NCBI GenBank assembly: GCA_045648465.1
Contig: JAZROA010000010.1
Span: forward strand, 7,317-71,316
DNA length: 64,000 bases
Direction: 5' to 3'
Source of the DNA: Saccharofermentans sp.
GTDB taxonomy: Bacteria > Bacillota > Clostridia > Saccharofermentanales > Saccharofermentanaceae
Positions within the stretch are counted from its first letter, which is position 1. Every line of letters starts with the position of its first letter. Of this stretch, positions 3,167-25,687 are shown in pieces. The position numbers and the translations under genes are program-made. The notes beneath the pieces are model-generated. The model saw only the letters and a program-made list of their open reading frames with translations. It did no database searches and was not told the DNA's origin.

Positions 3167-3661
3167 TCACAGCTGAACAATAGTGAAAGACAGGAATGTC
3201 GGCGGATTACCAAGTTCTGATTTAATGCTGAACCCACATATCGGATTGTAACCCGTATATATATCGTGGATTTGCATTGTAATGTCTGTTTTATCTGATG
3301 AAGCGGCCGAGATTCTGTCTATGTGAAGATCCTGCATAGCTTCCGGAGCACCGTCAATTTCAAATGCTCGATCAGAACCAGCTACTATTCCAGCTAACAA
3401 CAATCTAGCAAGTTTTGACAGGTAGTTTTTATCAATAGAGGATAGTTTTGTACCTGCAAAGAAAATATCAACATTATCTTCATTGATTACAAAATCAACC
3501 TGTTCTGGTGTCGATTGATTTCTTACTACACGAAGAATAGGGAAATAAATATCGTTTATGCGTTCAACGTTCTCATTGGCCGCATAAAGCCGTCCTGTAT
3601 ACATCAGCTCAATTAACGCATACAGTTCGCTCCACTCGCCTCTGTTCCCGGTTAGTCGCAT
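3167..3661 (-). pseudogene. HpaII-family type II restriction endonuclease, N-terminal ~45% only
   Basis: The N-terminus NRGEWSELYALIELMYTGRLY and the segment GFSIKSELGNPPT match the R.HpaII family as I recall it (~350 aa). Here the ORF stops after 164 aa and is followed by AT-rich non-coding DNA. Confidence 0.55.
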
Positions 3662-3671
3662 AAACGCCTCC

Positions 3672-4298
3672 CTAGCCTAATACATCTTTAATCTGCTCCG
3701 CTATAGCTTGTATTACATTTACAGTTACACTGTTACCAAACTGCTTATATAAATGAGTATCAGATAATTCCAAAACATAGCTGTCAGGGAAGCCTTGAAG
3801 TCTTGCCCACTCCCTCGGAGTCATCTTTCTGATATCTTCATCATTGATCTTTCCTGAAATATGAGTCTCTGGAATTTTGCTGTGTTCACGATGATCAATG
3901 ATAAGATTTCTTTCTCTTCCCATTCCACCGCAAACAATAGTACCAGCAATACCGTCAAGATCCCTAATTTCGTATCCAAATCCGTTGCCCTTGGCTTCAT
4001 GTCTTGCCTTATGCTTTCTGAGCGTTTCTACATAAACGTCAGAAAGATAGTATCTGGCAGGAACAGGTGCAGCATCCATAATATCAATGATGCATTTCTG
4101 TTTCTTCTGAGCCTTAGGGAAAACAAACTCACCAACATTGAGATCATCCCTAAAAGCTACAATATAGATTCGTTCTCTGTTTTGCGGAACGCCATAATCT
4201 TTACTATTAAGAACCTTCCAAAAAACATGATAACCAATATCCTGGAAAGCTTTACGGATAACACGGAATGTATTGCCCTTAACAATTACAAAGAAAAT
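3672..4298 (-). pseudogene. DNA (cytosine-5)-methyltransferase, C-terminal half only (5'-truncated)
   Basis: The frame is open from 4298 with no start codon. It contains YGVPQNRERIYIVAF (motif VI), a target-recognition region, RKMTPREWARLQGFPD (motif IX) and YKQFGNSVTVNV (motif X). Motifs I-IV (FxGxG, PCQ, ENV) are absent. Confidence 0.8.
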
Positions 4299-15132: not shown

Positions 15133-15807
15133 TCAGCCTACTGTTCTGCCACTGTCGAGAACGACAGTCCTCGTGCCATAAGTTGCGCACTCTTCGGAGT
15201 GGGTAACCTGAAGTATTGTGAGACCTTTCTCCTGATTGAGCCTTCTGAACAGATCCATGATCTCTCCCGTGGACTTCTTGTCAAGGTTTCCTGTAGGCTC
15301 ATCTGCGAGGATGATCTTCGGGTTTCCGATGACTGCTCTGGCTACTGCTACTCTCTGCTGCTGGCCGCCGGAGAGCTGGTTGGGCATTGACTTGCGCTTT
15401 TCCGTAAGGCCTGTAATCTCCAAGATCTCATCAAGTTCTTTTTTTAGAGAAGACTTTGTCTTACCGTTCATCATCTGAGGAAGAAGGATGTTGTCTTCAA
15501 CAGACAGGTTCATGACGAGGTTATAGAACTGGAATACGAATCCCACGTTCTGAAGACGGAGATCAGAGAGTTCTTTGTCCTTGAGAGGTCCGATCTCCTT
15601 TCCGCAAAGTGAGATGCTGCCTTCGAAATCCCTGTCGAGACCTCCGATGAGATAAAGGAGTGTCGACTTGCCGGAACCTGAAGCACCCATGAGGGATACG
15701 AACTCGCCTTTCTGAACATTCAGACATGCGCCGTTTAATACCTGGTTGAGACTTGTGTTCTTGCCGAATGACTTGCTGACGTTATTTACTTCGATTACTG
15801 TATTCAT
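15133..15807 (-). CDS. ABC transporter ATP-binding protein (MacB/LolD type)
   Basis: Walker [10 protein letters not shown], signature LSGGQQQRV, Walker B ILADEPT. Confidence 0.9.
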
Positions 15808-18301: not shown

Positions 18302-20290
18302 TTAATGCCATCTCGAAATTCTGTTTTCGGGAGGTATGTACATGCCGTCACCTTCCTGAACATCATATACATCGTAGAAACAATCGGTCGTTGAAAGGAT
18401 GGCGTTAACTCTTATGACTTCAGGGCTGTGCACGTCAGATGACAGCTGGCCGATGATAACAACGTCAATGCTCATACGGCAATATGAAGCAGCGTAGCTC
18501 TTAAAGATCTTCTCAAGATCTTCATTTGAATGTGCAAGAGTGACGATACATTCCATACCGCTCAAGTCTGCGAAGTTCTCACCAAGAGTCAGTTCACCGT
18601 CAACATGGTAGATACCGAATACGGTAAAGTTATCTTCAAAATATCTGACCGCCTTTTCATTACGTTCGAGAAGTGCTTCCATGTCTTCGTCAGCGATCCA
18701 TTCAGGATTATAAACACCGTTCTGATCGAAAACGATACAGTTGCTGTCGAATGCATGTCCCATCTCATGAGCAATGGTTGCTCCGAGATTTCCCAGATTG
18801 GTGTAATAATCGCCGTTAACGTCGAAGAAAGAATCGCCTGCGATAGCAACCGTTATGGTTATATTGTTTTGTGTCGCTGAGTAGCACGCATTAACAGTCT
18901 GCATTTTCATTTCCACTCCATAACGGTCAACGGGCCGGGAAAGACTTGCTATTCCGTCTGCAATGCCTGCTCTGATATATCCCATATAGAATTCATAGAA
19001 ATTGCCGCCGATACCCGCATACTTGGAAGTATCGTGTCTCTTAAGATCTGTTCCGGTAACGTAAACAATGTTATCGAGTTTTTCGATGAGGCCTTTTCTT
19101 GTAGGCTCAGTAAGCCATGTTGCATCCGAGATCAGGGCCCTGTAACCTTCCCTTATGTCATCACACATTGATCGGAGAGCATCGTCGGTCTCCTTCGAAT
19201 AATACCTCTCAACATAAAGAGGATCTGTCTCATTCTTAAGATTGGAAATTATCTCATTTACTGCCAGCTCTTCAACCGGCTTATAGCTGTCGTAGACATA
19301 TCCTGCAAGGCTGTCATAACTGGGAGCAATGAATCTCATGTAACTGCTGTAGATCTTGTGGATCTCCAGGGCTTTTAAAGCATCGAGTTTATCTTCAACC
19401 ATCAGCGAATTCATGCAGATCAGCTGGTCTTTATTGTAGCATCCGAATCTGTCACAAAAGTTTGGATCAAAACCAATGGCTTTAAAATATTCCTGAATGT
19501 CAACATTGGTGAATATACTGTTTAATTCGTCACCGGATAAGATGATCGTGTCAGTTACATCATAAGAGTCCTGTGCTGTTTTTGAACCTGATGCTCCATA
19601 AACACTAAGCACAAGATTTGCAAGTTCCTTTCCGTATTCAGAAGAAGTATCCACATCGTATCCTAAGGTCTGCATGTAAACTCTTGTGTCTGATACCAGC
19701 CCGGTCAGTGCTGAGTTACCGTCAGCCAGTGAATCGAAACTGACATCACACATACTTACAAAAGGATAAAAAGTAAGTATGCGTCTTCCGGATATGTAAA
19801 CATCTTCGCTGGCAGACAAAGAGAAGAAACCTGAGATTCCAAAATCACGGTAGAGCTTTGCATCTGTCATAAGAAGCTCATCAGCTGTCTTTGCATTCAT
19901 TACTTCATCAATAACATTTTGAAGATCTTCAGGGACCGGCTCGCTGTCAAAATCATAGCTTATGAAAGTGTTATAAGCAGTCTGGATAATGTATTCCTCA
20001 CTGCCCTTTTCATAACCTGAACCTGCGGCTACGTCCTTGACGATGTTTTCGAGTCTTTCGACAATAAGACTGTCATCGAATGCGTCGGCAGCGAATGCTG
20101 AACCGTACTCAAATTCAGCGTTATCGAGCTTATCCCTGTTGGCATAGTAGTAGAAATCGTCCTGGGGACGTCCTGACATCCACTTTGCAGTCTCTGAAGG
20201 TTCAACTGTACCAACGTCTGATGGTGTACAGCCGGATATCAGAGATGCTGTCATTGCACAGATCAAAGCAGCTCCAATCAACTTCTTCAT
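18302..20290 (-). CDS. M13-family zinc metalloendopeptidase (PepO/neprilysin-like) lipoprotein
   Basis: Lipobox LISGC, HEMGHAFD (HExxH), and ENFADLSG (the ENxADxGG-type motif of M13). Confidence 0.85.
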   Translation of the reverse strand: MKKLIGAALICAMTASLISGCTPSDVGTVEPSETAKWMSGRPQDDFYYYANRDKLDNAEFEYGSAFAADAFDDSLIVERLENIVKDVAAGSGYEKGSEEYIIQTAYNTFISYDFDSEPVPEDLQNVIDEVMNAKTADELLMTDAKLYRDFGISGFFSLSASEDVYISGRRILTFYPFVSMCDVSFDSLADGNSALTGLVSDTRVYMQTLGYDVDTSSEYGKELANLVLSVYGASGSKTAQDSYDVTDTIILSGDELNSIFTNVDIQEYFKAIGFDPNFCDRFGCYNKDQLICMNSLMVEDKLDALKALEIHKIYSSYMRFIAPSYDSLAGYVYDSYKPVEELAVNEIISNLKNETDPLYVERYYSKETDDALRSMCDDIREGYRALISDATWLTEPTRKGLIEKLDNIVYVTGTDLKRHDTSKYAGIGGNFYEFYMGYIRAGIADGIASLSRPVDRYGVEMKMQTVNACYSATQNNITITVAIAGDSFFDVNGDYYTNLGNLGATIAHEMGHAFDSNCIVFDQNGVYNPEWIADEDMEALLERNEKAVRYFEDNFTVFGIYHVDGELTLGENFADLSGMECIVTLAHSNEDLEKIFKSYAASYCRMSIDVVIIGQLSSDVHSPEVIRVNAILSTTDCFYDVYDVQEGDGMYIPPENRISRWH

Positions 20291-20324: not shown

Positions 20325-20389
20325 ATGCTATCACATACAAAAGCAGTCACCTTTTTTTGTGGTGAATTGCGCTTATAAAGTGGTGATTT
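20325..20389 (-). promoter_or_regulatory. Candidate LytTR box plus -10 for the M13 peptidase/ABC operon
   Basis: Minus-strand read: AAATCACCAC-N11-AATTCACCAC-N28-TAGCAT. The same architecture occurs at three other promoters. Confidence 0.65.
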
Positions 20390-20409
20390 GCAAAATTACC
20401 GGGCCGGAA

Positions 20410-21780
20410 TCAAATAACAACTTCAGCTCTGAAGAGGAATCCGAATGGCTTTTCTTCGCAGGATACGGACAATTCTCCGCCACAGTCTTCCGCAGCACTT
20501 CTGATGTTGGAAATACCGAAGCCGTGATTCTTTTTATCGGATTTGCTTGTGACTATCTTGCCGTCTTTGATATCAGGCTTCTCGGAACAGGGATTGGTAA
20601 CAGAGATCATGAAGAAGTTCTCCGTGTGCTTAAATTGGAGATCGATCACTTTGTATTCGGGAGCCAGGTCCTTGAGGCCCGGAGCAGCGGCAGCTTCGAT
20701 CGCATTATCAAGAAGGTTTCCGAGCATCTTGCACATGTTTACGGGAGAGATCTCAACACCTGATATCGCACCGGTGACATCCAATTTAAGACCTGCTGCC
20801 GAAGCACGCTTCTTCTTATCTGTGATTATCGCGTCGGCAATTACATCGCCGGTGTGGCTGCTGACGTTCGTGCCCGCCAGGCCTTCGCTCATCTCTTCGA
20901 GATACTCCTGCATTTTATCGTATTCCTTATTTGCCAGAAGGAGCATCAGGACCTGCACGTTGTTACGCATGTCATGACGCATCGCACGAATCTCGGAATC
21001 AGCCTTGGCAGATGCTTCGAAAAATTTAGTCTGCGAATCCACCAGTTCCTCGTTGATCTTGTTCAGCTGTTTAAGTCCGTCACGTTCTTTTCTGGTAACG
21101 CGCAGGAAGAAGAACAGCCATACCGTTATGAGGATCAGTATGAGCAATACCTGCTTTGCCGTCTCATTTGCGACGACAACGGCATCAGTTATTGTGTCAT
21201 CAGCGAAAAATGCATTGACCAGGATCAGGAACAGGCATACAACACCCAGTACCGGAAGGGGCAGCGGAGTATTGTCGTTTTTCTGCCTGGCCTTTGCGAT
21301 CGGGAACAGGAAAAGGAAATCCGCCACTGCCGTAATGATCTCCATGATCAAAGCCGCAATGACCAGTCGTCCTTCATCTTCCAGATCAAAACGGTTGAGG
21401 ACCTGGAGCATGATCGCCTCAACAATATGATTTACGCTTCCTATTATCTCAGTCGACAAAAAGAGTGCGAGGAATCTTCTCCAGACCTTGCCCTTGAGCA
21501 TGAACAATAAGACGAAGAAGTGGACTATCAGACCCGCGAGCCTTATGACATCGTATGCTCCGATCGTTAATCCGTCGAGGTCAAGAAAATCCTCCTTGAT
21601 CAGATATGCTCCGGCTTCTGCCAGAATAACCGTTATCCCTGCTATTACAATTGATGTTATATAAGCAGTTTTCCTGTTCTTGAAGTCGTATTTGAACGCA
21701 CCTTCCACGGCATAAGTGGTCGCCATGATTATCGCCAGCGGATTGATCGTGTAAACCAGAAACTTCATTACTTCGATCAT
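20410..21780 (-). CDS. AgrC/ComD-like (HPK10) sensor histidine kinase, multi-TM with GHKL ATPase
   Basis: Six to seven N-terminal TM helices, H-box EIRAMRHDMRNN, N-box GNLLDNAIEA and G-box NHGFGISNI. Its start overlaps the response regulator stop by 4 nt. Confidence 0.85.
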   Translation of the reverse strand: MIEVMKFLVYTINPLAIIMATTYAVEGAFKYDFKNRKTAYITSIVIAGITVILAEAGAYLIKEDFLDLDGLTIGAYDVIRLAGLIVHFFVLLFMLKGKVWRRFLALFLSTEIIGSVNHIVEAIMLQVLNRFDLEDEGRLVIAALIMEIITAVADFLFLFPIAKARQKNDNTPLPLPVLGVVCLFLILVNAFFADDTITDAVVVANETAKQVLLILILITVWLFFFLRVTRKERDGLKQLNKINEELVDSQTKFFEASAKADSEIRAMRHDMRNNVQVLMLLLANKEYDKMQEYLEEMSEGLAGTNVSSHTGDVIADAIITDKKKRASAAGLKLDVTGAISGVEISPVNMCKMLGNLLDNAIEAAAAPGLKDLAPEYKVIDLQFKHTENFFMISVTNPCSEKPDIKDGKIVTSKSDKKNHGFGISNIRSAAEDCGGELSVSCEEKPFGFLFRAEVVI

Positions 21781-22487
21781 CTGCCTGCTCTCCTGACGTA
21801 CTCAAAAAGCCTCTTCTTTGCATCTGCCGCGCTGCCTCTTGCCACCGGCAGGATATCGCCGTTATCCATTGCGACATCGTTGCTTCCGAGCTTTTTGACA
21901 TGAGCAAGGTTCACATAGTAGGATCTGTGGCACTTGCAGAAATCCTTGCTTATCCCATCGACCATTTCAGCCGCCTGGGCGAATTTCATGCGCATCTCAA
22001 CGGAATCTTTCCTGAAGACAAAACGCACAGAATTATTAGACGCTTCAATATATATGAGATCGCCGATCCCATAGATGATCTCTTCACCGTCTTTTTTGAG
22101 GATTATCTTCTCTTCAACCTTGAGTTTCTTCTCAAGTTCGGTCAGAGTCTCCAAGAGCTTGTCCTTCTTTACGGGCTTGCTCAAAAACCTGAGCGCATCA
22201 ACCTCATAACCTTCCAGGGCCATTTCCGTGTGGCTCGTAAGGAAGATTATCGGGATGTCTTTTGAATATTGGCGGATGACCTTGGCCGTGGACATGCCGT
22301 CCAATTCCTTCATCTCAATATCAAGGAATACCGCATCCGGTACAAAACCGTTCTCAAAGCTCTTTACGATCTCGCTGCCGTCGGAATAGAGATAACAACT
22401 GACAGTCTCCGTGCCGTAAACTGCATAGATCAGTTCAGCGACGTGGTTCCTGTATACACTCTCATCGTCAACTATTGCTAGCCTCAT
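21777..22487 (-). CDS. LytTR-family response regulator
   Basis: REC domain (IVDDE, LDIEM, LTSH) followed by a LytTR domain (HRSYYVNLAHV). Confidence 0.9.
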   Translation of the reverse strand: MRLAIVDDESVYRNHVAELIYAVYGTETVSCYLYSDGSEIVKSFENGFVPDAVFLDIEMKELDGMSTAKVIRQYSKDIPIIFLTSHTEMALEGYEVDALRFLSKPVKKDKLLETLTELEKKLKVEEKIILKKDGEEIIYGIGDLIYIEASNNSVRFVFRKDSVEMRMKFAQAAEMVDGISKDFCKCHRSYYVNLAHVKKLGSNDVAMDNGDILPVARGSAADAKKRLFEYVRRAGR

Positions 22488-22620
22488 GGGATCCTCCGGC
22501 AGAATTTTGAAAAGGAGCCGCCTATTACGTCAGCTCCTTACATTTTAATATATTATCCTACTCGGGCAATAGAATTTTACTTATCGTGTGGCCCTGAAGA
22601 AGGAGACGATTTGTTTTCTA

Positions 22621-23622
22621 TTAATCAAAGGCCGAATTCATTGCCATCGAGACACATGTCATGGTCGCTACCTCTTCTGCAACGATCGAGGCAAGTGCGC
22701 TGCTAATAACTGCGCTGTTAACGGCTTTGTTGTAGATCTGGTCATCACTGCCGGAGAGCATATCGGCTACGAAGATCGCTGCGAACATAAGGCGCTCACG
22801 CTTTTGGAGTGTCCAGTTCCCGAAGCCCTTCTCTCTTCCCAGATACTCCTCTGTCTCTATGACCATATCAACAAGTTCATCCATGTCGATATCAAGTTCA
22901 GCAAGAGCTCCCAGTGATGAGAATTCATAATAACTGCCGTATCTGGCACCATGTTCCTTAAATGTCGTAAAGAGCTCTGCTGACTTATCGCACTTCTCTC
23001 TCAGGTTGCCGCCGGAGATAACGAGCAGTTCGCTCAATCCCTGGATGGCATTTGCATCAGCCTTGACCTTGAGTTCTTTCTTGAGATATACGTAGCACTC
23101 TTCGATCTCATCGACTAATGCGTCGTCATCTTTCTCGCTCAGAGCAAGAAGAACTGCAAAAGCTATATCGCTCTCATCAGACAGGAGCGGGTGCTTTTTG
23201 CTGAGCTTATCAACGATACTCTCCATGCGCTTTGCGATATTTGCCGCTTCGTTCATCAGGCCGAGATCGACGATCGTCATGGCGGAGAGCACCATGCAGT
23301 TATATTCAATGATCCTCTTTCCTCTTATTGTCTTATAAACAGCAAGTACATCATCAATATATTTCTCGGGGTCTGTCTGGATCGACATCTTTGTCAGTAC
23401 GGCGAGTTCAACAGTAACTCTGAACGAAGACAGGATACTTGTTTTGGAAGCCAGTATCTTCCTTGCTTCCTTTATCTTCTCAATATCAGCTCTGCGGTTT
23501 GAATTCGTCAGGATAAGGCTTGATACCATGCAGTTAAGTCCGTATTCAAACATAAATGCATCTCCTACTGCCTGTCTGTTCTGAATGAATAAATCGATTT
23601 TGCTCTTAAGATTCGAGTCCAT
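22621..23622 (-). CDS. Hypothetical all-helical soluble protein (333 aa; possibly DUF4003-like)
   Basis: Clean ORF with an RBS. The family name comes from weak memory only. Confidence 0.5.
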   Translation of the reverse strand: MDSNLKSKIDLFIQNRQAVGDAFMFEYGLNCMVSSLILTNSNRRADIEKIKEARKILASKTSILSSFRVTVELAVLTKMSIQTDPEKYIDDVLAVYKTIRGKRIIEYNCMVLSAMTIVDLGLMNEAANIAKRMESIVDKLSKKHPLLSDESDIAFAVLLALSEKDDDALVDEIEECYVYLKKELKVKADANAIQGLSELLVISGGNLREKCDKSAELFTTFKEHGARYGSYYEFSSLGALAELDIDMDELVDMVIETEEYLGREKGFGNWTLQKRERLMFAAIFVADMLSGSDDQIYNKAVNSAVISSALASIVAEEVATMTCVSMAMNSAFD

Positions 23623-23660
23623 ATTGGTCCAGCTCCTTTTTGAGGTTTTCTATGGCATGG

Positions 23661-23725
23661 ATATTAGCATTCGAATCAGTCTATACCGGATTTTGTGGTG
23701 AATTGCAGTTTTTGAGTGGCGAGTT
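23661..23725 (-). promoter_or_regulatory. Candidate LytTR box plus -10 for gene 22621-23622
   Basis: Minus-strand read: AACTCGCCAC-N11-AATTCACCAC-N28-TAATAT. Confidence 0.65.
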
Positions 23726-23749
23726 GTCCGGCTGAAAAAAAGGAAATAC

Positions 23750-23815
23750 AATTTACCACTCTTATCATGCATTTCACCACAAAAAACCCAGCGGACTGAT
23801 TACAGATGATACTAT
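23750..23815 (+). promoter_or_regulatory. Candidate LytTR box plus -10 for gene 23859-24176
   Basis: AATTTACCAC-N11-ATTTCACCAC-N29-TACTAT. Confidence 0.65.
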
Positions 23816-23858
23816 CCGCTTATCAAAAGCAAAGCGAAATTAGCGGAGGAAAAAGATT

Positions 23859-24176
23859 ATGAAGACCAACGTTATTACTGAATCAAAGAACATCACGAAG
23901 AAAAACGCAGCTATGTTACTTGTAGGATTCCTTACACCAGTTATTCTGTTCTCAAGCCTTACAGTTTCATTGATGAACTCAGGCTCTGCTGCAGTAAAAG
24001 AAAAGACCGCACAGAAATATGCGGTCAACAAAGTATATCTCACAGATGAAATGTGCATTTCACCGAAGGCCTATATTTATAAGCAGGACGGAACCGATGA
24101 AGAGATTACGATAACTTTTGACAATGACAGTATCCGCTTAAGAGATGCTCTTCTTCCTACTATCGGCAGATTCTGA
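23859..24176 (+). CDS. Small membrane-anchored protein (105 aa, hypothetical)
   Basis: GGAGG RBS, one N-terminal TM helix, and a strong terminator downstream. Confidence 0.55.
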   Translation: MKTNVITESKNITKKNAAMLLVGFLTPVILFSSLTVSLMNSGSAAVKEKTAQKYAVNKVYLTDEMCISPKAYIYKQDGTDEEITITFDNDSIRLRDALLPTIGRF

Positions 24177-24240
24177 TAGTTTGATCAATGAACTTGACCG
24201 GAACACAGCCGGAATAATCTCTCATCATAAAAGCCTTCGA

Positions 24241-24284
24241 AGAGACTGTCTCAAAATGGGTGAGACAGTCTCTGTTTATTTATT
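24241..24284 (+). terminator. Rho-independent terminator
   Basis: AGAGACTGTCTC-N9-GAGACAGTCTCT followed by a T-rich tract. Confidence 0.8.
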
Positions 24285-24361
24285 ATAAATCAAGATTGGA
24301 TCAGAGGTTTGCCCGCAGATTTTAGAAAATTCGCAGCAGCAAGGCATTTTCAGATTTAGAT

Positions 24362-24470
24362 AATCACAGTAAAAGTCACAGTACACTATGACGGCTACTG
24401 TGATTTTTTCGAGCCTTTATACAAAATCACACTAATAGTCACAGTGCACTATGACAGTTACTGTGATTTT
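24362..24470 (+). repeat. Two tandem ~48 nt word-hairpin units (61 nt period)
   Basis: AATCACAGTAAAAGTCACAGTACACTATGACGGCTACTGTGATTTTTT and AATCACACTAATAGTCACAGTGCACTATGACAGTTACTGTGATTTTT. Confidence 0.85.
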
Positions 24471-24568
24471 TCGCGATGGATACCAGGACGCGTCTCATGT
24501 TTGCTGTCTGATCAGTAAGGAATAAAGAAGCACTCCCTTGGGATTATCCGGGGAGTGTTTTTAATAGA

Positions 24569-24599
24569 GAAAAGCCCCGGCTTGTGACCGGAGCTTTTC
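24569..24599 (-). terminator. Probable terminator of the M48 peptidase gene
   Basis: AAAAGCTCCGG-N6-CCGGGGCTTTT on the minus strand, with one mismatch in the stem. Confidence 0.5.
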
Positions 24600-24623
24600 C
24601 CATTGTGTAATAGGGGATAGGAA

Positions 24624-25601
24624 TTACAAAAGCCTTCCACTTTTATGGGTCGGATCAAGGATGGCCTTTGTTCTAAGCGGATTAATAGGGTGACTTGCGG
24701 TCAGGTTAGTAACGAATCTTGCGAATTTCTCGATGAAATTCTTGTCCTTGTTTACATATGACATATAGTTGTCGACATTAACGTACTTATAGACATGTCT
24801 TCCTGCAGAGAGGAACATCATTGTCTCAGCACCACACTTATTGTCTGTAAGAACCTGTGCAACGCGGTCACAAGAGTATTCTCTTGCACGCTGCAGGAGA
24901 GGTCCCATAAATTTTTGGCCGAAAATGGGGATTATGTTTGCAAGATTTGCGAAGAAATTATAGTGGAGTTTAGTGTGCTTATAATACAGATGACCGAACT
25001 CATGTCCCATTATGAAGCTAATCGTATCAAGATCTTTGTGCTCCAGATACAGCAGTTCGATTATTTCTGCGTTCAAATGCACATAGTCTTTGCCGGGAAC
25101 CCAGGATGCATATGCATTGATAGTGCCGTTCATCTGTTCAACATAAACTTCAGGTTCCTTCTTGAAGCCGAGAAGCTTTGAGAACTCTTTGACTTTCGCG
25201 TAGATCTCAGGGAAATTCTCTTCGGAAACCCTGATGCCGTAAGCCATGTTGCTTGCGTATCCCTTGTAGTATTCAATGAGGCTCAGGATGATGAGATAGC
25301 AGACGAAACCGATTGCACCGATCGAAGCAAATACTGCTATGAAACCAATAAGGAATGCTGAGAATTCAGGACTTGTTTCCGTAATCTCCGCATTCTCGAG
25401 ACCTTCCTTGATCAGATCAACGATTCCGTATTCGCCGAATAAAACGATACCTGCGATACATAAGAAAACCGGTCCGATAATTGAATTGATCACAAAGAGC
25501 GGTAACTCTGCCTTGTGGCGGCGGTTTCTTATTTCTTTTTGTACCGACTCAGGTGTTCTGACTGTCTGTTCACTCATAACTTGTTCCTCCAATTTTGACA
25601 C
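24624..25601 (-). CDS. M48-family (HtpX/Ste24-like) membrane zinc metallopeptidase
   Basis: Two to three TM helices, then HEFGHLYYKH (HExxH) and a downstream acidic ligand region. Confidence 0.8.
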   Translation of the reverse strand: MSKLEEQVMSEQTVRTPESVQKEIRNRRHKAELPLFVINSIIGPVFLCIAGIVLFGEYGIVDLIKEGLENAEITETSPEFSAFLIGFIAVFASIGAIGFVCYLIILSLIEYYKGYASNMAYGIRVSEENFPEIYAKVKEFSKLLGFKKEPEVYVEQMNGTINAYASWVPGKDYVHLNAEIIELLYLEHKDLDTISFIMGHEFGHLYYKHTKLHYNFFANLANIIPIFGQKFMGPLLQRAREYSCDRVAQVLTDNKCGAETMMFLSAGRHVYKYVNVDNYMSYVNKDKNFIEKFARFVTNLTASHPINPLRTKAILDPTHKSGRLL

Positions 25602-25622
25602 AATGTTTTGTTGAATGAGGCT

Positions 25623-25687
25623 AGGTTATCATCGCGAAAGACGTTTTGCGGATTTTGTGGTGAATTGACAGTGTAGCGTGGTGAAAT
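25623..25687 (-). promoter_or_regulatory. Candidate LytTR box plus -10 for the M48 peptidase gene
   Basis: Minus-strand read: ATTTCACCAC-N11-AATTCACCAC-N28-TAACCT. Confidence 0.65.

Follow-up and report, generated by a model that had tools for sequence, protein, structure and literature searches.

Two-component systems formed by an HPK10 histidine kinase together with a response regulator bearing a LytTR DNA-binding domain are known to work through direct-repeat operators, and two-component control of a peptidase together with an FtsX-type ATP-binding cassette (ABC) transporter has also been described. In Clostridium perfringens, VirS senses the product of an unlinked agrBD locus, and in the Fsr system, FsrA controls gelE-sprE. 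The VirR boxes consist of two imperfect direct repeats that lie just upstream of the −35 element, and both repeats are required for activation (PMC2838878). The nsr operon combines a peptidase (NSR), a transporter (NsrFP) and a two-component system (NsrRK) (PMC5786555). In this work, we analyzed a 64,000-nucleotide stretch of DNA from Saccharofermentans sp. (the whole stretch is called the window; other loci are cited by L or P numbers), in which four promoters around an AgrC/ComD-like kinase and a LytTR regulator share a phased direct-repeat box. The original prediction, made from the window, held that this two-component system drives the flanking units through the shared box, and phylogenetic footprinting across 36 species strongly supports this idea. 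We favor, with roughly even confidence, the view that the locus encodes a peptide-sensing LytTR system that would induce a proteolysis-and-export defense against extracellular peptides.

VirSR shares with this locus a LytTR regulator with a polytopic kinase and direct repeats of 12-13 nt placed about 21 bp apart; it also combines a small core with a strain-variable accessory regulon, a protease gene included (ccp, clostripain), and its signal genes are unlinked (PMC2838878). Nevertheless, its outputs are toxins or regulatory RNAs, whereas those found here are an M13 lipoprotein, an FtsX-type ABC transporter and membrane proteases; moreover, the two-component genes usually lie within the induced operon here, and no cognate agrBD is known. 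The boxes differ as well, the repeat being TGCAATTCACCAC in this locus and CCCAGTTNTNCAC in VirR boxes. The agr, ComDE, BlpRH, PlnBCD and FsrCA systems share with the locus the HPK10 kinase, the LytTR regulator, paired repeats before activator-dependent promoters, autoregulation, and a sensor that is hypervariable within a species and joined to a conserved kinase domain. In contrast to these systems, neither the locus nor its 36 orthologous loci include a gene for a pheromone precursor, AgrB or a C39-ABC protein, and the regulon is composed of predicted cell-anchored proteases and an ABC pump.

The nsr operon of Streptococcus agalactiae and the Bce systems resemble the locus in that a membrane-anchored peptidase, an FtsX-domain ABC transporter and the inducing two-component system are brought together, following a sense-degrade-expel logic (PMC5786555). 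In one relative (L014), an S41 peptidase, of the NSR family, is itself preceded by the box. However, every component belongs to another family: the peptidase is M13 instead of S41, the regulator is of the LytTR and not the OmpR type, and the kinase is a seven-transmembrane AgrC-like HPK10 protein rather than a transporter-dependent, intramembrane-sensing one. The architecture of BceB (about 650 amino acids, 10 helices, and a single large extracellular domain, placed between helices 7 and 8) was not found either, given that, by crude hydropathy, the 820-residue permease carries two domains of about 200 amino acids. Because the families differ, the analogy with Bce and Nsr is functional only. 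PepO of streptococci and lactococci, which degrades short signaling and host-defense peptides, belongs to the same M13 family and has the same active-site motifs; in those bacteria, however, it is not known to be a lipoprotein whose gene shares a transcript with those of an FtsX-type ABC transporter and a LytTR two-component system. Literature searches combining LytTR with FtsX and M13, with resistance, or with the rumen returned nothing relevant, and no description of the module or the box was found in them, which agrees with the earlier failure to match the locus to a described system. What is new is the combination of families, the operator sequence, the protease-rich regulon, and the presence of sensor alleles without a linked pheromone.

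A phased direct-repeat box precedes four transcription units

The four composite boxes were found where they had been predicted, and counting confirmed that 28, 28, 29 and 28 nt separate the proximal repeat from the −10 hexamer (Table 1). The loose pattern CCAC-N17-CCAC gave exactly four matches on both strands of the 64 kb, corresponding to the four boxes; hence, as had been noted by eye, there is no further copy in the window. The sequence TTCACCAC was present five times, against 1.65 expected, and the five copies are all inside boxes. With a 37-nt weight matrix, built partly from the four window sites themselves, these sites scored 40-51 bits, whereas 20 shuffled versions of the window gave no score above 9.3.

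The alignment of 64 unique sites from genomes and metagenomes revealed the consensus TGCAATTCACCAC-N8-TGCAATTCACCAC-AAAA. The paired repeats and the 21-bp period of the original prediction were retained, and its 10-mer unit was extended to 13 nt; in addition, the −10 hexamer turned out to be TG-extended. The −10 begins 28 or 29 nt past the proximal repeat in 57 of these sites, and the upstream TG is present in 55. The information content reaches 1.5-1.7 bits per position in the repeats, is also high in the GC that precedes the proximal repeat, and falls near zero in the spacer. A canonical −35 was not detected at the box promoters, and a scan with the consensus sigma-70 promoter missed all four (its other matches occurred at background frequency), as expected if these promoters have no −35 and need an activator. 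This layout, in which paired direct repeats of about 21-bp period stand right before a weak or missing −35, is that of LytTR targets; in our sites, the position relative to the transcription start was deduced from the −10 only.

The box and a five-gene operon are conserved in rumen and gut Clostridia

Orthologs of the kinase are numerous in metagenomes; scanning one genome per species with an alignment of 14 such sequences yielded 36 loci. All of them come from rumen or gut Clostridia, either metagenome-assembled genomes labeled Saccharofermentans, Mageeibacillus or Ruminococcaceae, or the isolates YAD3003 and YRB3002. About 30 of the 36 loci have the genes on one strand in the order M13-FtsX-ABC-regulator-kinase; the window and its two closest relatives (L001, which is YAD3003, and L002) have the rearranged order DUF4003-regulator-kinase-M13-FtsX-ABC. 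When all open reading frames (ORFs) of at least 35 amino acids from 37 loci were clustered, only the five core genes were conserved around the module, which indicates that these five genes are the unit. A single M13-FtsX-ABC-regulator-kinase operon, predicted to be autoregulated, represents both the ancestral and the common layout. The neighborhood is conserved in the form of this operon, and the four-unit layout of the window is a rearranged and expanded derivative of it.

The box was found just upstream of the M13 gene in every locus that holds this region, with scores of 28-51 bits, even where M13 identity drops to 42%; five of these sites that were left out of matrix building (L015, L022, L028, L029 and L032) scored 30-35. 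Across the 36 species, the sequence of the box, its phase and its distance to the −10 are conserved, and the spacer and the flanking DNA drift. In the 706 kb scanned, all matches of at least 28 bits were located 5′ of a gene and ran in its sense orientation. In most species, the box precedes an operon that contains the regulator and kinase genes, an arrangement that would give positive autoregulation. As in Bce/Nsr-type loci, an FtsX-domain ABC transporter is encoded next to the two-component system in about 30 of the 36 loci, and the box upstream suggests that it is induced.

Taken together, a LytTR-type operator, extended −10 promoters predicted to be activator-dependent, an autoregulated core operon and a variable protease regulon make up a regulatory architecture that, on comparative grounds, we consider solid. 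From the strict co-occurrence of the box with these genes and its LytTR-typical geometry, we infer that the regulator of this locus binds the box. It is very improbable that the box is instead bound by another regulator, or that it is a shared promoter element without a dedicated activator whose proximity to a LytTR gene is coincidental. Boxes do occur at sites unlinked to two-component genes (L065, L093, L100, L091, L114 and L144), as this alternative would have it; however, in 36 species the box has stayed with the two-component genes through rearrangements, and the length of the repeats, their 21-bp phase and their location upstream of a missing −35 are a LytTR signature. Furthermore, metagenome boxes with the true geometry stand only before the same gene families or further membrane-anchored hydrolases.

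Some relatives show variations on the module. L156 (695-7014) contains an M13-FtsX-ABC operon and a divergent DUF4003 gene (51% identical), with a degenerate half-box before a strong TG-extended −10; this operon may have escaped regulation or be controlled in trans. The DUF4003 gene adjoins M13-FtsX-ABC in L006 as well as in L156. In L015 (6502-9235), L022 (6476-9218) and L024 (6571-9292), an insertion separates the ABC gene from the LytTR-regulator gene and encodes a membrane protein of the DUF975 family, an OmpR-family regulator and a short kinase. According to the ORF lists, the inserted kinase has 346-349 amino acids; it shows two transmembrane segments and an outer loop of about 33 residues. 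These modules thus combine two-component systems of two different kinds, and one of the two recalls BceRS.

The accessory regulon is rich in membrane proteases

Besides the core operon, the box precedes in the genome loci the genes for the 105-amino-acid protein (six loci), DUF4003 and M48, as well as a 126-amino-acid protein with about four transmembrane segments, judged by eye from its sequence (L005 and L006), and a CPBP/Rce1-like protease (L034). In L014, the box is followed by a gene for a small transmembrane protein and then by those for the S41 peptidase and for a protease of the CPBP family. When metagenome contigs were scanned with the box pattern, 118 stretches matched; about two thirds of these were chance matches or an unrelated CACCAC-rich soil repeat and were filtered out, and about 41 sites, mostly from rumen and gut samples, passed the filter of matrix score and −10 geometry. 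The genes downstream of these sites again encode M13, M48, DUF4003, and the 105- and 126-amino-acid proteins; the new targets were a membrane-anchored protease of the C11 clostripain family (L134 and L067) and a membrane-anchored alpha/beta-hydrolase (L147). In other words, the filtered boxes fronted only the same families or further membrane-anchored hydrolases. Box-driven M48 orthologs were both linked and unlinked to two-component genes, and several metagenome box sites have no two-component genes on their contig. All of the box-driven proteases are predicted to be cell-anchored rather than secreted.

One and the same box promoter, with an identical 5′ leader and identical first 14 codons (MSESTVRTPEAVQAE), is joined to an M48 body in L100 (3118-3550) and to a C11 body in L134 (7411-7600) and L067 (1347-1697); L110 and L112 are frameshifted. 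The identical head on M48 and C11 bodies points to recombination that moves a regulated head onto different protease bodies. On this evidence, the regulon is a core plus a shuffled set of envelope proteases.

The soil element is a different sequence. It recurs in soil and peat contigs (L066, L099, L101, L102, L118, L122, L143, L145 and others) with the form ...ACCACGTTTACCACGCAATTCACCACAAAA(T)CACCA(C/T)CAAAAACACCACGTTTTGCAC...TTTTTCGCAAAAACCC; its several ACCAC units are spaced irregularly, a −10 is missing at the LytTR distance, and the gene families of this regulon do not occur nearby.

Discrete sensor alleles in near-identical loci

The locus of the window is about 98-99% identical to that of YAD3003 except in positions 21100-21780, where mismatches rise to 13-41 per 100 nt. 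At the protein level, the two kinases share 66% identity over residues 1-230 and 100% in the kinase half. For kinase codons 1-215, synonymous divergence (dS) is 0.86, versus 0.04-0.08 in the flanking genes, and the ratio of non-synonymous to synonymous divergence (dN/dS) is 0.28. By this profile, the sensor is an old allele brought in by recombination and not the product of a recent burst of change. Three sensor alleles were found in near-identical backgrounds of one species: allele A in the window and in L155/P0024, allele B in L001, L002, L116, P0002 and P0003, and a third form in P0001. Differences between sensors peak in the predicted outer loops (50-58%) and amount to 0-31% in the cytoplasmic loops, according to a seven-transmembrane, N-terminus-out topology based on hydropathy. 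The variable segment ends precisely at the start of the kinase and takes in no neighboring gene. A sensor that is hypervariable within the species and a conserved kinase domain are thus found together, as in agr-type systems; unlike agr, no adjacent gene co-varies.

A similar trend was observed across the 36 loci. Identity to the window is highest for the ABC ATPase (71-99%) and decreases through the regulator and the kinase half, the transmembrane parts of the permease, and M13, the lowest values corresponding to the extracytoplasmic domains of the permease (26-58%, excluding L001 and L002, in which it is 97-100%) and to the kinase sensor (23-64%). The parts that face outward evolve fastest.

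The main rival to a defense function gains from these alleles. According to this alternative, the box genes form a quorum-sensing regulon that responds to a self-made pheromone encoded elsewhere; at high density, the envelope proteases and the ABC machine would be expressed for foraging or surface remodeling, and the alleles would be pherotypes. The kinase is AgrC-like and the regulator is LytTR-type, discrete and ancient sensor alleles in otherwise near-identical loci recall the agr groups, and positive autoregulation is the common layout. Direct control of proteases by a LytTR regulator also has a precedent in the VirR boxes before the clostripain gene ccp (PMC2838878), and a gene of the C11 clostripain family is box-driven in L134. 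On the other hand, the proteases are predicted to be anchored to the cell rather than secreted, and the search for a signal described below speaks against this alternative, which we regard as possible but rather unlikely.

No gene for a peptide signal was found next to the box

Genes for AgrB/AgrD, a C39 exporter or bacteriocins were not found in the locus or among the window genes scanned (to about 43 kb), and neither the window locus nor the 36 orthologous loci hold a linked pheromone gene with a maturation or export gene. The domain and ORF scans therefore bear out the earlier remark that AgrB/AgrD, a C39 exporter and a pheromone gene are missing nearby. Moreover, a scan for small ORFs (at least 12-15 amino acids) gave none that was consistently present between the ABC and regulator genes or after the kinase gene. 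At none of the 64 unique box sites is the gene directly downstream a short pheromone-like ORF, whereas the known peptide systems autoinduce their pheromone gene. Both results, which were obtained within these loci and contigs and leave room for a signal gene elsewhere in the genome, count against quorum sensing.

The 105-amino-acid protein was an obvious candidate for a precursor, given its N-terminal signal anchor, its dN/dS of about 1 and its own box. It is the only small exported protein that is box-driven in the clade of the window, and it is identical in loci with allele A (L155/L097) and allele B (L116). Since the protein is the same across sensor alleles, it does not set specificity, and it was rejected as a pheromone or specificity determinant; this, too, disfavors a quorum-sensing regulon.

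Between the window (23859-24176) and L001 (472-789), the gene of this protein shows 11 non-synonymous and 3 synonymous differences, giving a dN/dS of about 1.07 from these small counts, compared with 0.05-0.27 for its neighbors. None of the differences falls within the conserved transmembrane segment or the LLPxxGRF motif at the C-terminus; they may reflect relaxed or diversifying selection.

Genes and other features of the window

Pfam searches showed that the predicted gene calls and domain assignments were correct (Table 1). The translation of the M13 gene includes the lipobox LISGC, HEMGH at residue 508 and GENFADLSG, and together with the two M13 domains it thus has the HExxH and ENxADxxG motifs of the family; its sequence relatives in the PDB are Zmp1 and PepO (E 1e-40), neprilysin also being among the nearest solved structures. 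The ABC ATPase is nearest to NCBIfam models of the LolD, FtsE, MacB and DarD type. By crude hydropathy, the permease has two extracytoplasmic domains of about 200 residues each (38-242 and 488-689), each preceding an FtsX domain, and a sequence search of the PDB gave a single remote match, YtrF. Hence, the permease looks tandem MacB-like rather than BceB-type. An FtsX permease with extracytoplasmic domains, a LolD/MacB/FtsE-like ATPase, and the absence of a substrate-binding protein, all of them seen here, are the traits of MacB/FtsX (type VII) ABC transporters.

The kinase matched HATPase_c_5 with an E value of 8e-21 and has about seven hydrophobic segments in residues 1-229, as corresponds to the polytopic sensor of HPK10 kinases; its match to the NCBIfam AgrC model was weak (E 1e-8) and far under the cut-off of the model. 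The stop of the regulator gene overlaps the start of the kinase gene by 4 nt. The protein described earlier as all-helical is a member of the DUF4003 family, and its AlphaFold2 model (predicted local distance difference test, pLDDT, 82.5) confidently shows 15 helices. A sequence search of the PDB with this protein gave nothing, a Foldseek search against the PDB found no match (the best E value was 0.3, to designed helical toroids), and a literature search on its function gave only an unrelated mention of the family. By hydropathy, the 105-amino-acid protein has one transmembrane segment (residues 18-36).

The M48 gene probably starts at the ATG at 25577, which is preceded by a GGAGG ribosome-binding site, rather than at the GTG at 25601. 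The HEFGH motif is at residue 200 in the numbering from the GTG (residue 192 from the ATG), and hydropathy places the transmembrane segments at residues 36-54 and 88-106 in the GTG numbering. The N-terminus appears to be inside, and the catalytic domain is thus probably on the cytoplasmic side, as in HtpX. Therefore, of the two metallopeptidases that had been proposed to be extracytoplasmic, M13 is indeed a predicted surface lipoprotein, and M48 probably acts from the other face of the membrane.

These proteins also bear on a further alternative, in which the kinase would sense membrane perturbation rather than a specific peptide and the regulon, with M48, the CPBP proteins, the FtsX-type ABC transporter and the M13 lipoprotein, would repair or remodel the envelope, as an envelope-stress or membrane-protein quality-control response; the transporter could then act on a lipoprotein hydrolase as FtsEX does on PcsB or CwlO. 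M48 resembles HtpX and probably has its catalytic domain on the inner side of the membrane, mechanotransmission by FtsX-family transporters is known to power hydrolases outside the cytoplasm (FtsEX with PcsB, CwlO or EnvC), and the regulon is made up entirely of envelope proteins. However, one would not expect a generic stress sensor to maintain, within one species, ancient and discrete alleles limited to its outward-facing half, and it is mainly the allelic sensor that makes this explanation improbable. In addition, the HPK10 kinases characterized so far are peptide receptors, and M13 enzymes are oligopeptidases, not cell-wall hydrolases or quality-control proteases.

The hairpin between the DUF4003 and regulator genes is as weak as had been stated, since its stability is not significantly above that of shuffles (z −1.0); for this reason, its possible role as a leaky terminator remains a guess. 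It is plausible that transcription from box 2 reads through it into the regulator and kinase genes. A promoter-like sequence, TTGCCC-16-TAAAAT (22569-22542), lies just upstream of the hairpin. An Rfam scan of the whole 64-kb window detected no RNA family.

Table 1. Positions of the boxes, genes and other features in the window
Feature	Position	Strand	Basis and details
Box 1 and −10, promoter of M13-FtsX-ABC	20325..20389	minus	AAATCACCAC-N11-AATTCACCAC, 28 nt, TAGCAT; matrix score 41.4; repeats 20389-20380 and 20368-20359; −10 at 20330-20325
Box 2 and −10, promoter of the DUF4003 gene	23661..23725	minus	AACTCGCCAC-N11-AATTCACCAC, 28 nt, TAATAT; matrix score 50.9; repeats 23725-23716 and 23704-23695; −10 at 23666-23661; transcription probably continues into the regulator and kinase genes
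Box 3 and −10, promoter of the 105-amino-acid-protein gene	23750..23815	plus	AATTTACCAC-N11-ATTTCACCAC, 29 nt, TACTAT; matrix score 43.9; repeats 23750-23759 and 23771-23780; −10 at 23810-23815
Box 4 and −10, promoter of the M48 gene	25623..25687	minus	ATTTCACCAC-N11-AATTCACCAC, 28 nt, TAACCT; matrix score 40.4; repeats 25687-25678 and 25666-25657; −10 at 25628-25623
ABC ATPase, 224 amino acids, last gene of the M13-FtsX-ABC operon	15133..15807	minus	Pfam ABC_tran, E 6e-31
FtsX/MacB-type permease, 820 amino acids	15827..18289	minus	Pfam FtsX, two stretches
M13 (neprilysin/PepO-type) zinc endopeptidase, predicted lipoprotein	18302..20290	minus	Pfam Peptidase_M13_N and Peptidase_M13
AgrC/ComD-like (HPK10) histidine kinase, about 7 transmembrane segments	20410..21780	minus	Pfam HATPase_c_5 and SPOB_a; hydropathy
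Hypervariable membrane-sensor region of the kinase, codons 1-215	21136..21780	minus	Mismatch profile against YAD3003 (L001)
Response regulator, receiver and LytTR DNA-binding domains	21777..22487	minus	Pfam Response_reg, E 9e-20; LytTR, E 5e-13; both above cut-offs
Weak hairpin between the DUF4003 and regulator genes	22510..22540	minus	Stem of about 9 bp followed by UUUCAAAAUU
DUF4003 protein, 333 amino acids, soluble, all-alpha	22621..23622	minus	Pfam DUF4003, E 5e-52
Small protein, 105 amino acids, N-terminal transmembrane segment or signal anchor	23859..24176	plus	No Pfam or NCBIfam match
M48 (HtpX-like) zinc peptidase, two N-terminal transmembrane segments	24624..25577 (ORF to GTG 25601)	minus	Pfam Peptidase_M48

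Two other regions of the window drew our attention. A strain-specific segment of 284 nt (24242-24525) lies between the convergent genes of the 105-amino-acid protein and M48; it is replaced by an unrelated 82-nt segment in L155 and L116, and nothing is present at this place in L002. A terminator hairpin with a perfect 13-bp stem occupies 24241-24273, and two tandem units of 52 nt, 87% alike, are palindromic at 24357-24408 and 24420-24471, the internal palindrome of each being about 46 nt (AATCACAGTA...TACTGTGATT). No further copy of this palindrome was found in the window or in 159 fetched loci. The segment might be a small mobile element or an operator. In 3167-4079, two short adjacent ORFs match only parts of an HpaII restriction endonuclease model (the N-terminal 153 of 359 positions) and of a C5 cytosine methyltransferase model (its C-terminal third); they resemble what is left of a restriction-modification system that has decayed.

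Discussion

The mechanism that we propose for an inducible peptide defense would operate as follows. The polytopic AgrC-like kinase and the LytTR regulator would constitute a peptide-responsive switch. The inducers may be bacteriocins, antimicrobial peptides or foreign signals recognized by the outer face of the kinase. Once phosphorylated, the regulator would bind as a tandem pair to the two 13-nt repeats, at about −74 to −41, and recruit RNA polymerase to promoters that have no −35 and depend on a −10 with a TG extension. The core output, predicted in at least 36 species of rumen Oscillospiraceae-like Clostridia, would be the surface M13 lipoprotein endopeptidase and the tandem MacB/FtsX-type ABC transporter. 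The accessory output would vary among M48, S41, C11, CPBP and alpha/beta-hydrolase proteins, DUF4003, and small membrane proteins, with M48, DUF4003 and a small protein in the window. The induced peptidases would cut the peptide, and the ABC machine would either expel it from the membrane or drive the peptidase mechanically; removal of the inducer would then shut the loop off.

This proposal is favored because the genes of the sensor share an operon with those of a surface peptidase and an FtsX-type ABC transporter, following the logic of the nsr operon, because the accessory genes include S41 and CPBP/Abi families, which are tied to bacteriocin resistance and immunity, because no gene for an autoinduced peptide was found, and because the outward-facing parts evolve fastest. 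S41 is the protease family of the nisin-resistance protein, and the CPBP/Abi proteins are classical bacteriocin-immunity proteins. The exchange of ancient sensor alleles within one species, with differences that peak in the predicted outer loops, was also counted in its favor.

Several observations weigh against it. Allelic variation of the sensor is a hallmark of self-signaling in agr, com and blp, and it fits quorum sensing at least as well; likewise, quorum-sensing LytTR systems control proteases directly (VirR-ccp and FsrA-gelE-sprE), with signal genes that may be encoded elsewhere. BceB is of another type than the permease, and neither the regulator nor the kinase belongs to the Bce/Nsr families. 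The catalytic domain of M48 is probably cytoplasmic, and DUF4003 is a cytoplasmic protein without a fold match; neither of them suits a simple degradation of extracellular peptides. Finally, in L003 neither a box of their own nor an adjacent M13 operon accompanies the regulator and kinase genes, and in L156, the M13-FtsX-ABC operon has no adjacent two-component system and its box is degenerate.

A more specific version of the defense can also be considered, although only tentatively, because we think it is probably not correct in all its parts. It would be an inducible "proteolytic shield", in which an AgrC-like receptor with exchangeable specificity alleles detects the bacteriocins or pheromones of competitors, and the new LytTR box switches on a surface M13 peptidase, which works together with a tandem MacB-type machine and may be driven mechanically by it, and a shuffled set of membrane proteases. 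If true, it would be the first LytTR-controlled system for peptide resistance or quorum quenching, as well as the first case in which a MacB-type transporter is paired with a peptidase.

A circuit comprising a sensor, a regulator, an operator, promoters, and a core and accessory regulon has been defined here from DNA sequence, in rumen Clostridia that are abundant and poorly studied. It is testable, and the cultured isolates YAD3003 and YRB3002 exist for experiments. The sensor alleles represent a natural experiment on ligand specificity, and mechanotransmitting ABC machines may have a new client, as suggested by the M13 lipoprotein that is constantly paired with a tandem FtsX-type transporter. 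If the locus does serve for defense, peptide resistance in rumen Firmicutes would be built from parts other than those of Bce and Nsr, which would bear on the use of bacteriocins and ionophores in ruminants, and AgrC-like receptors would gain a role in the detection of foreign rather than self peptides.

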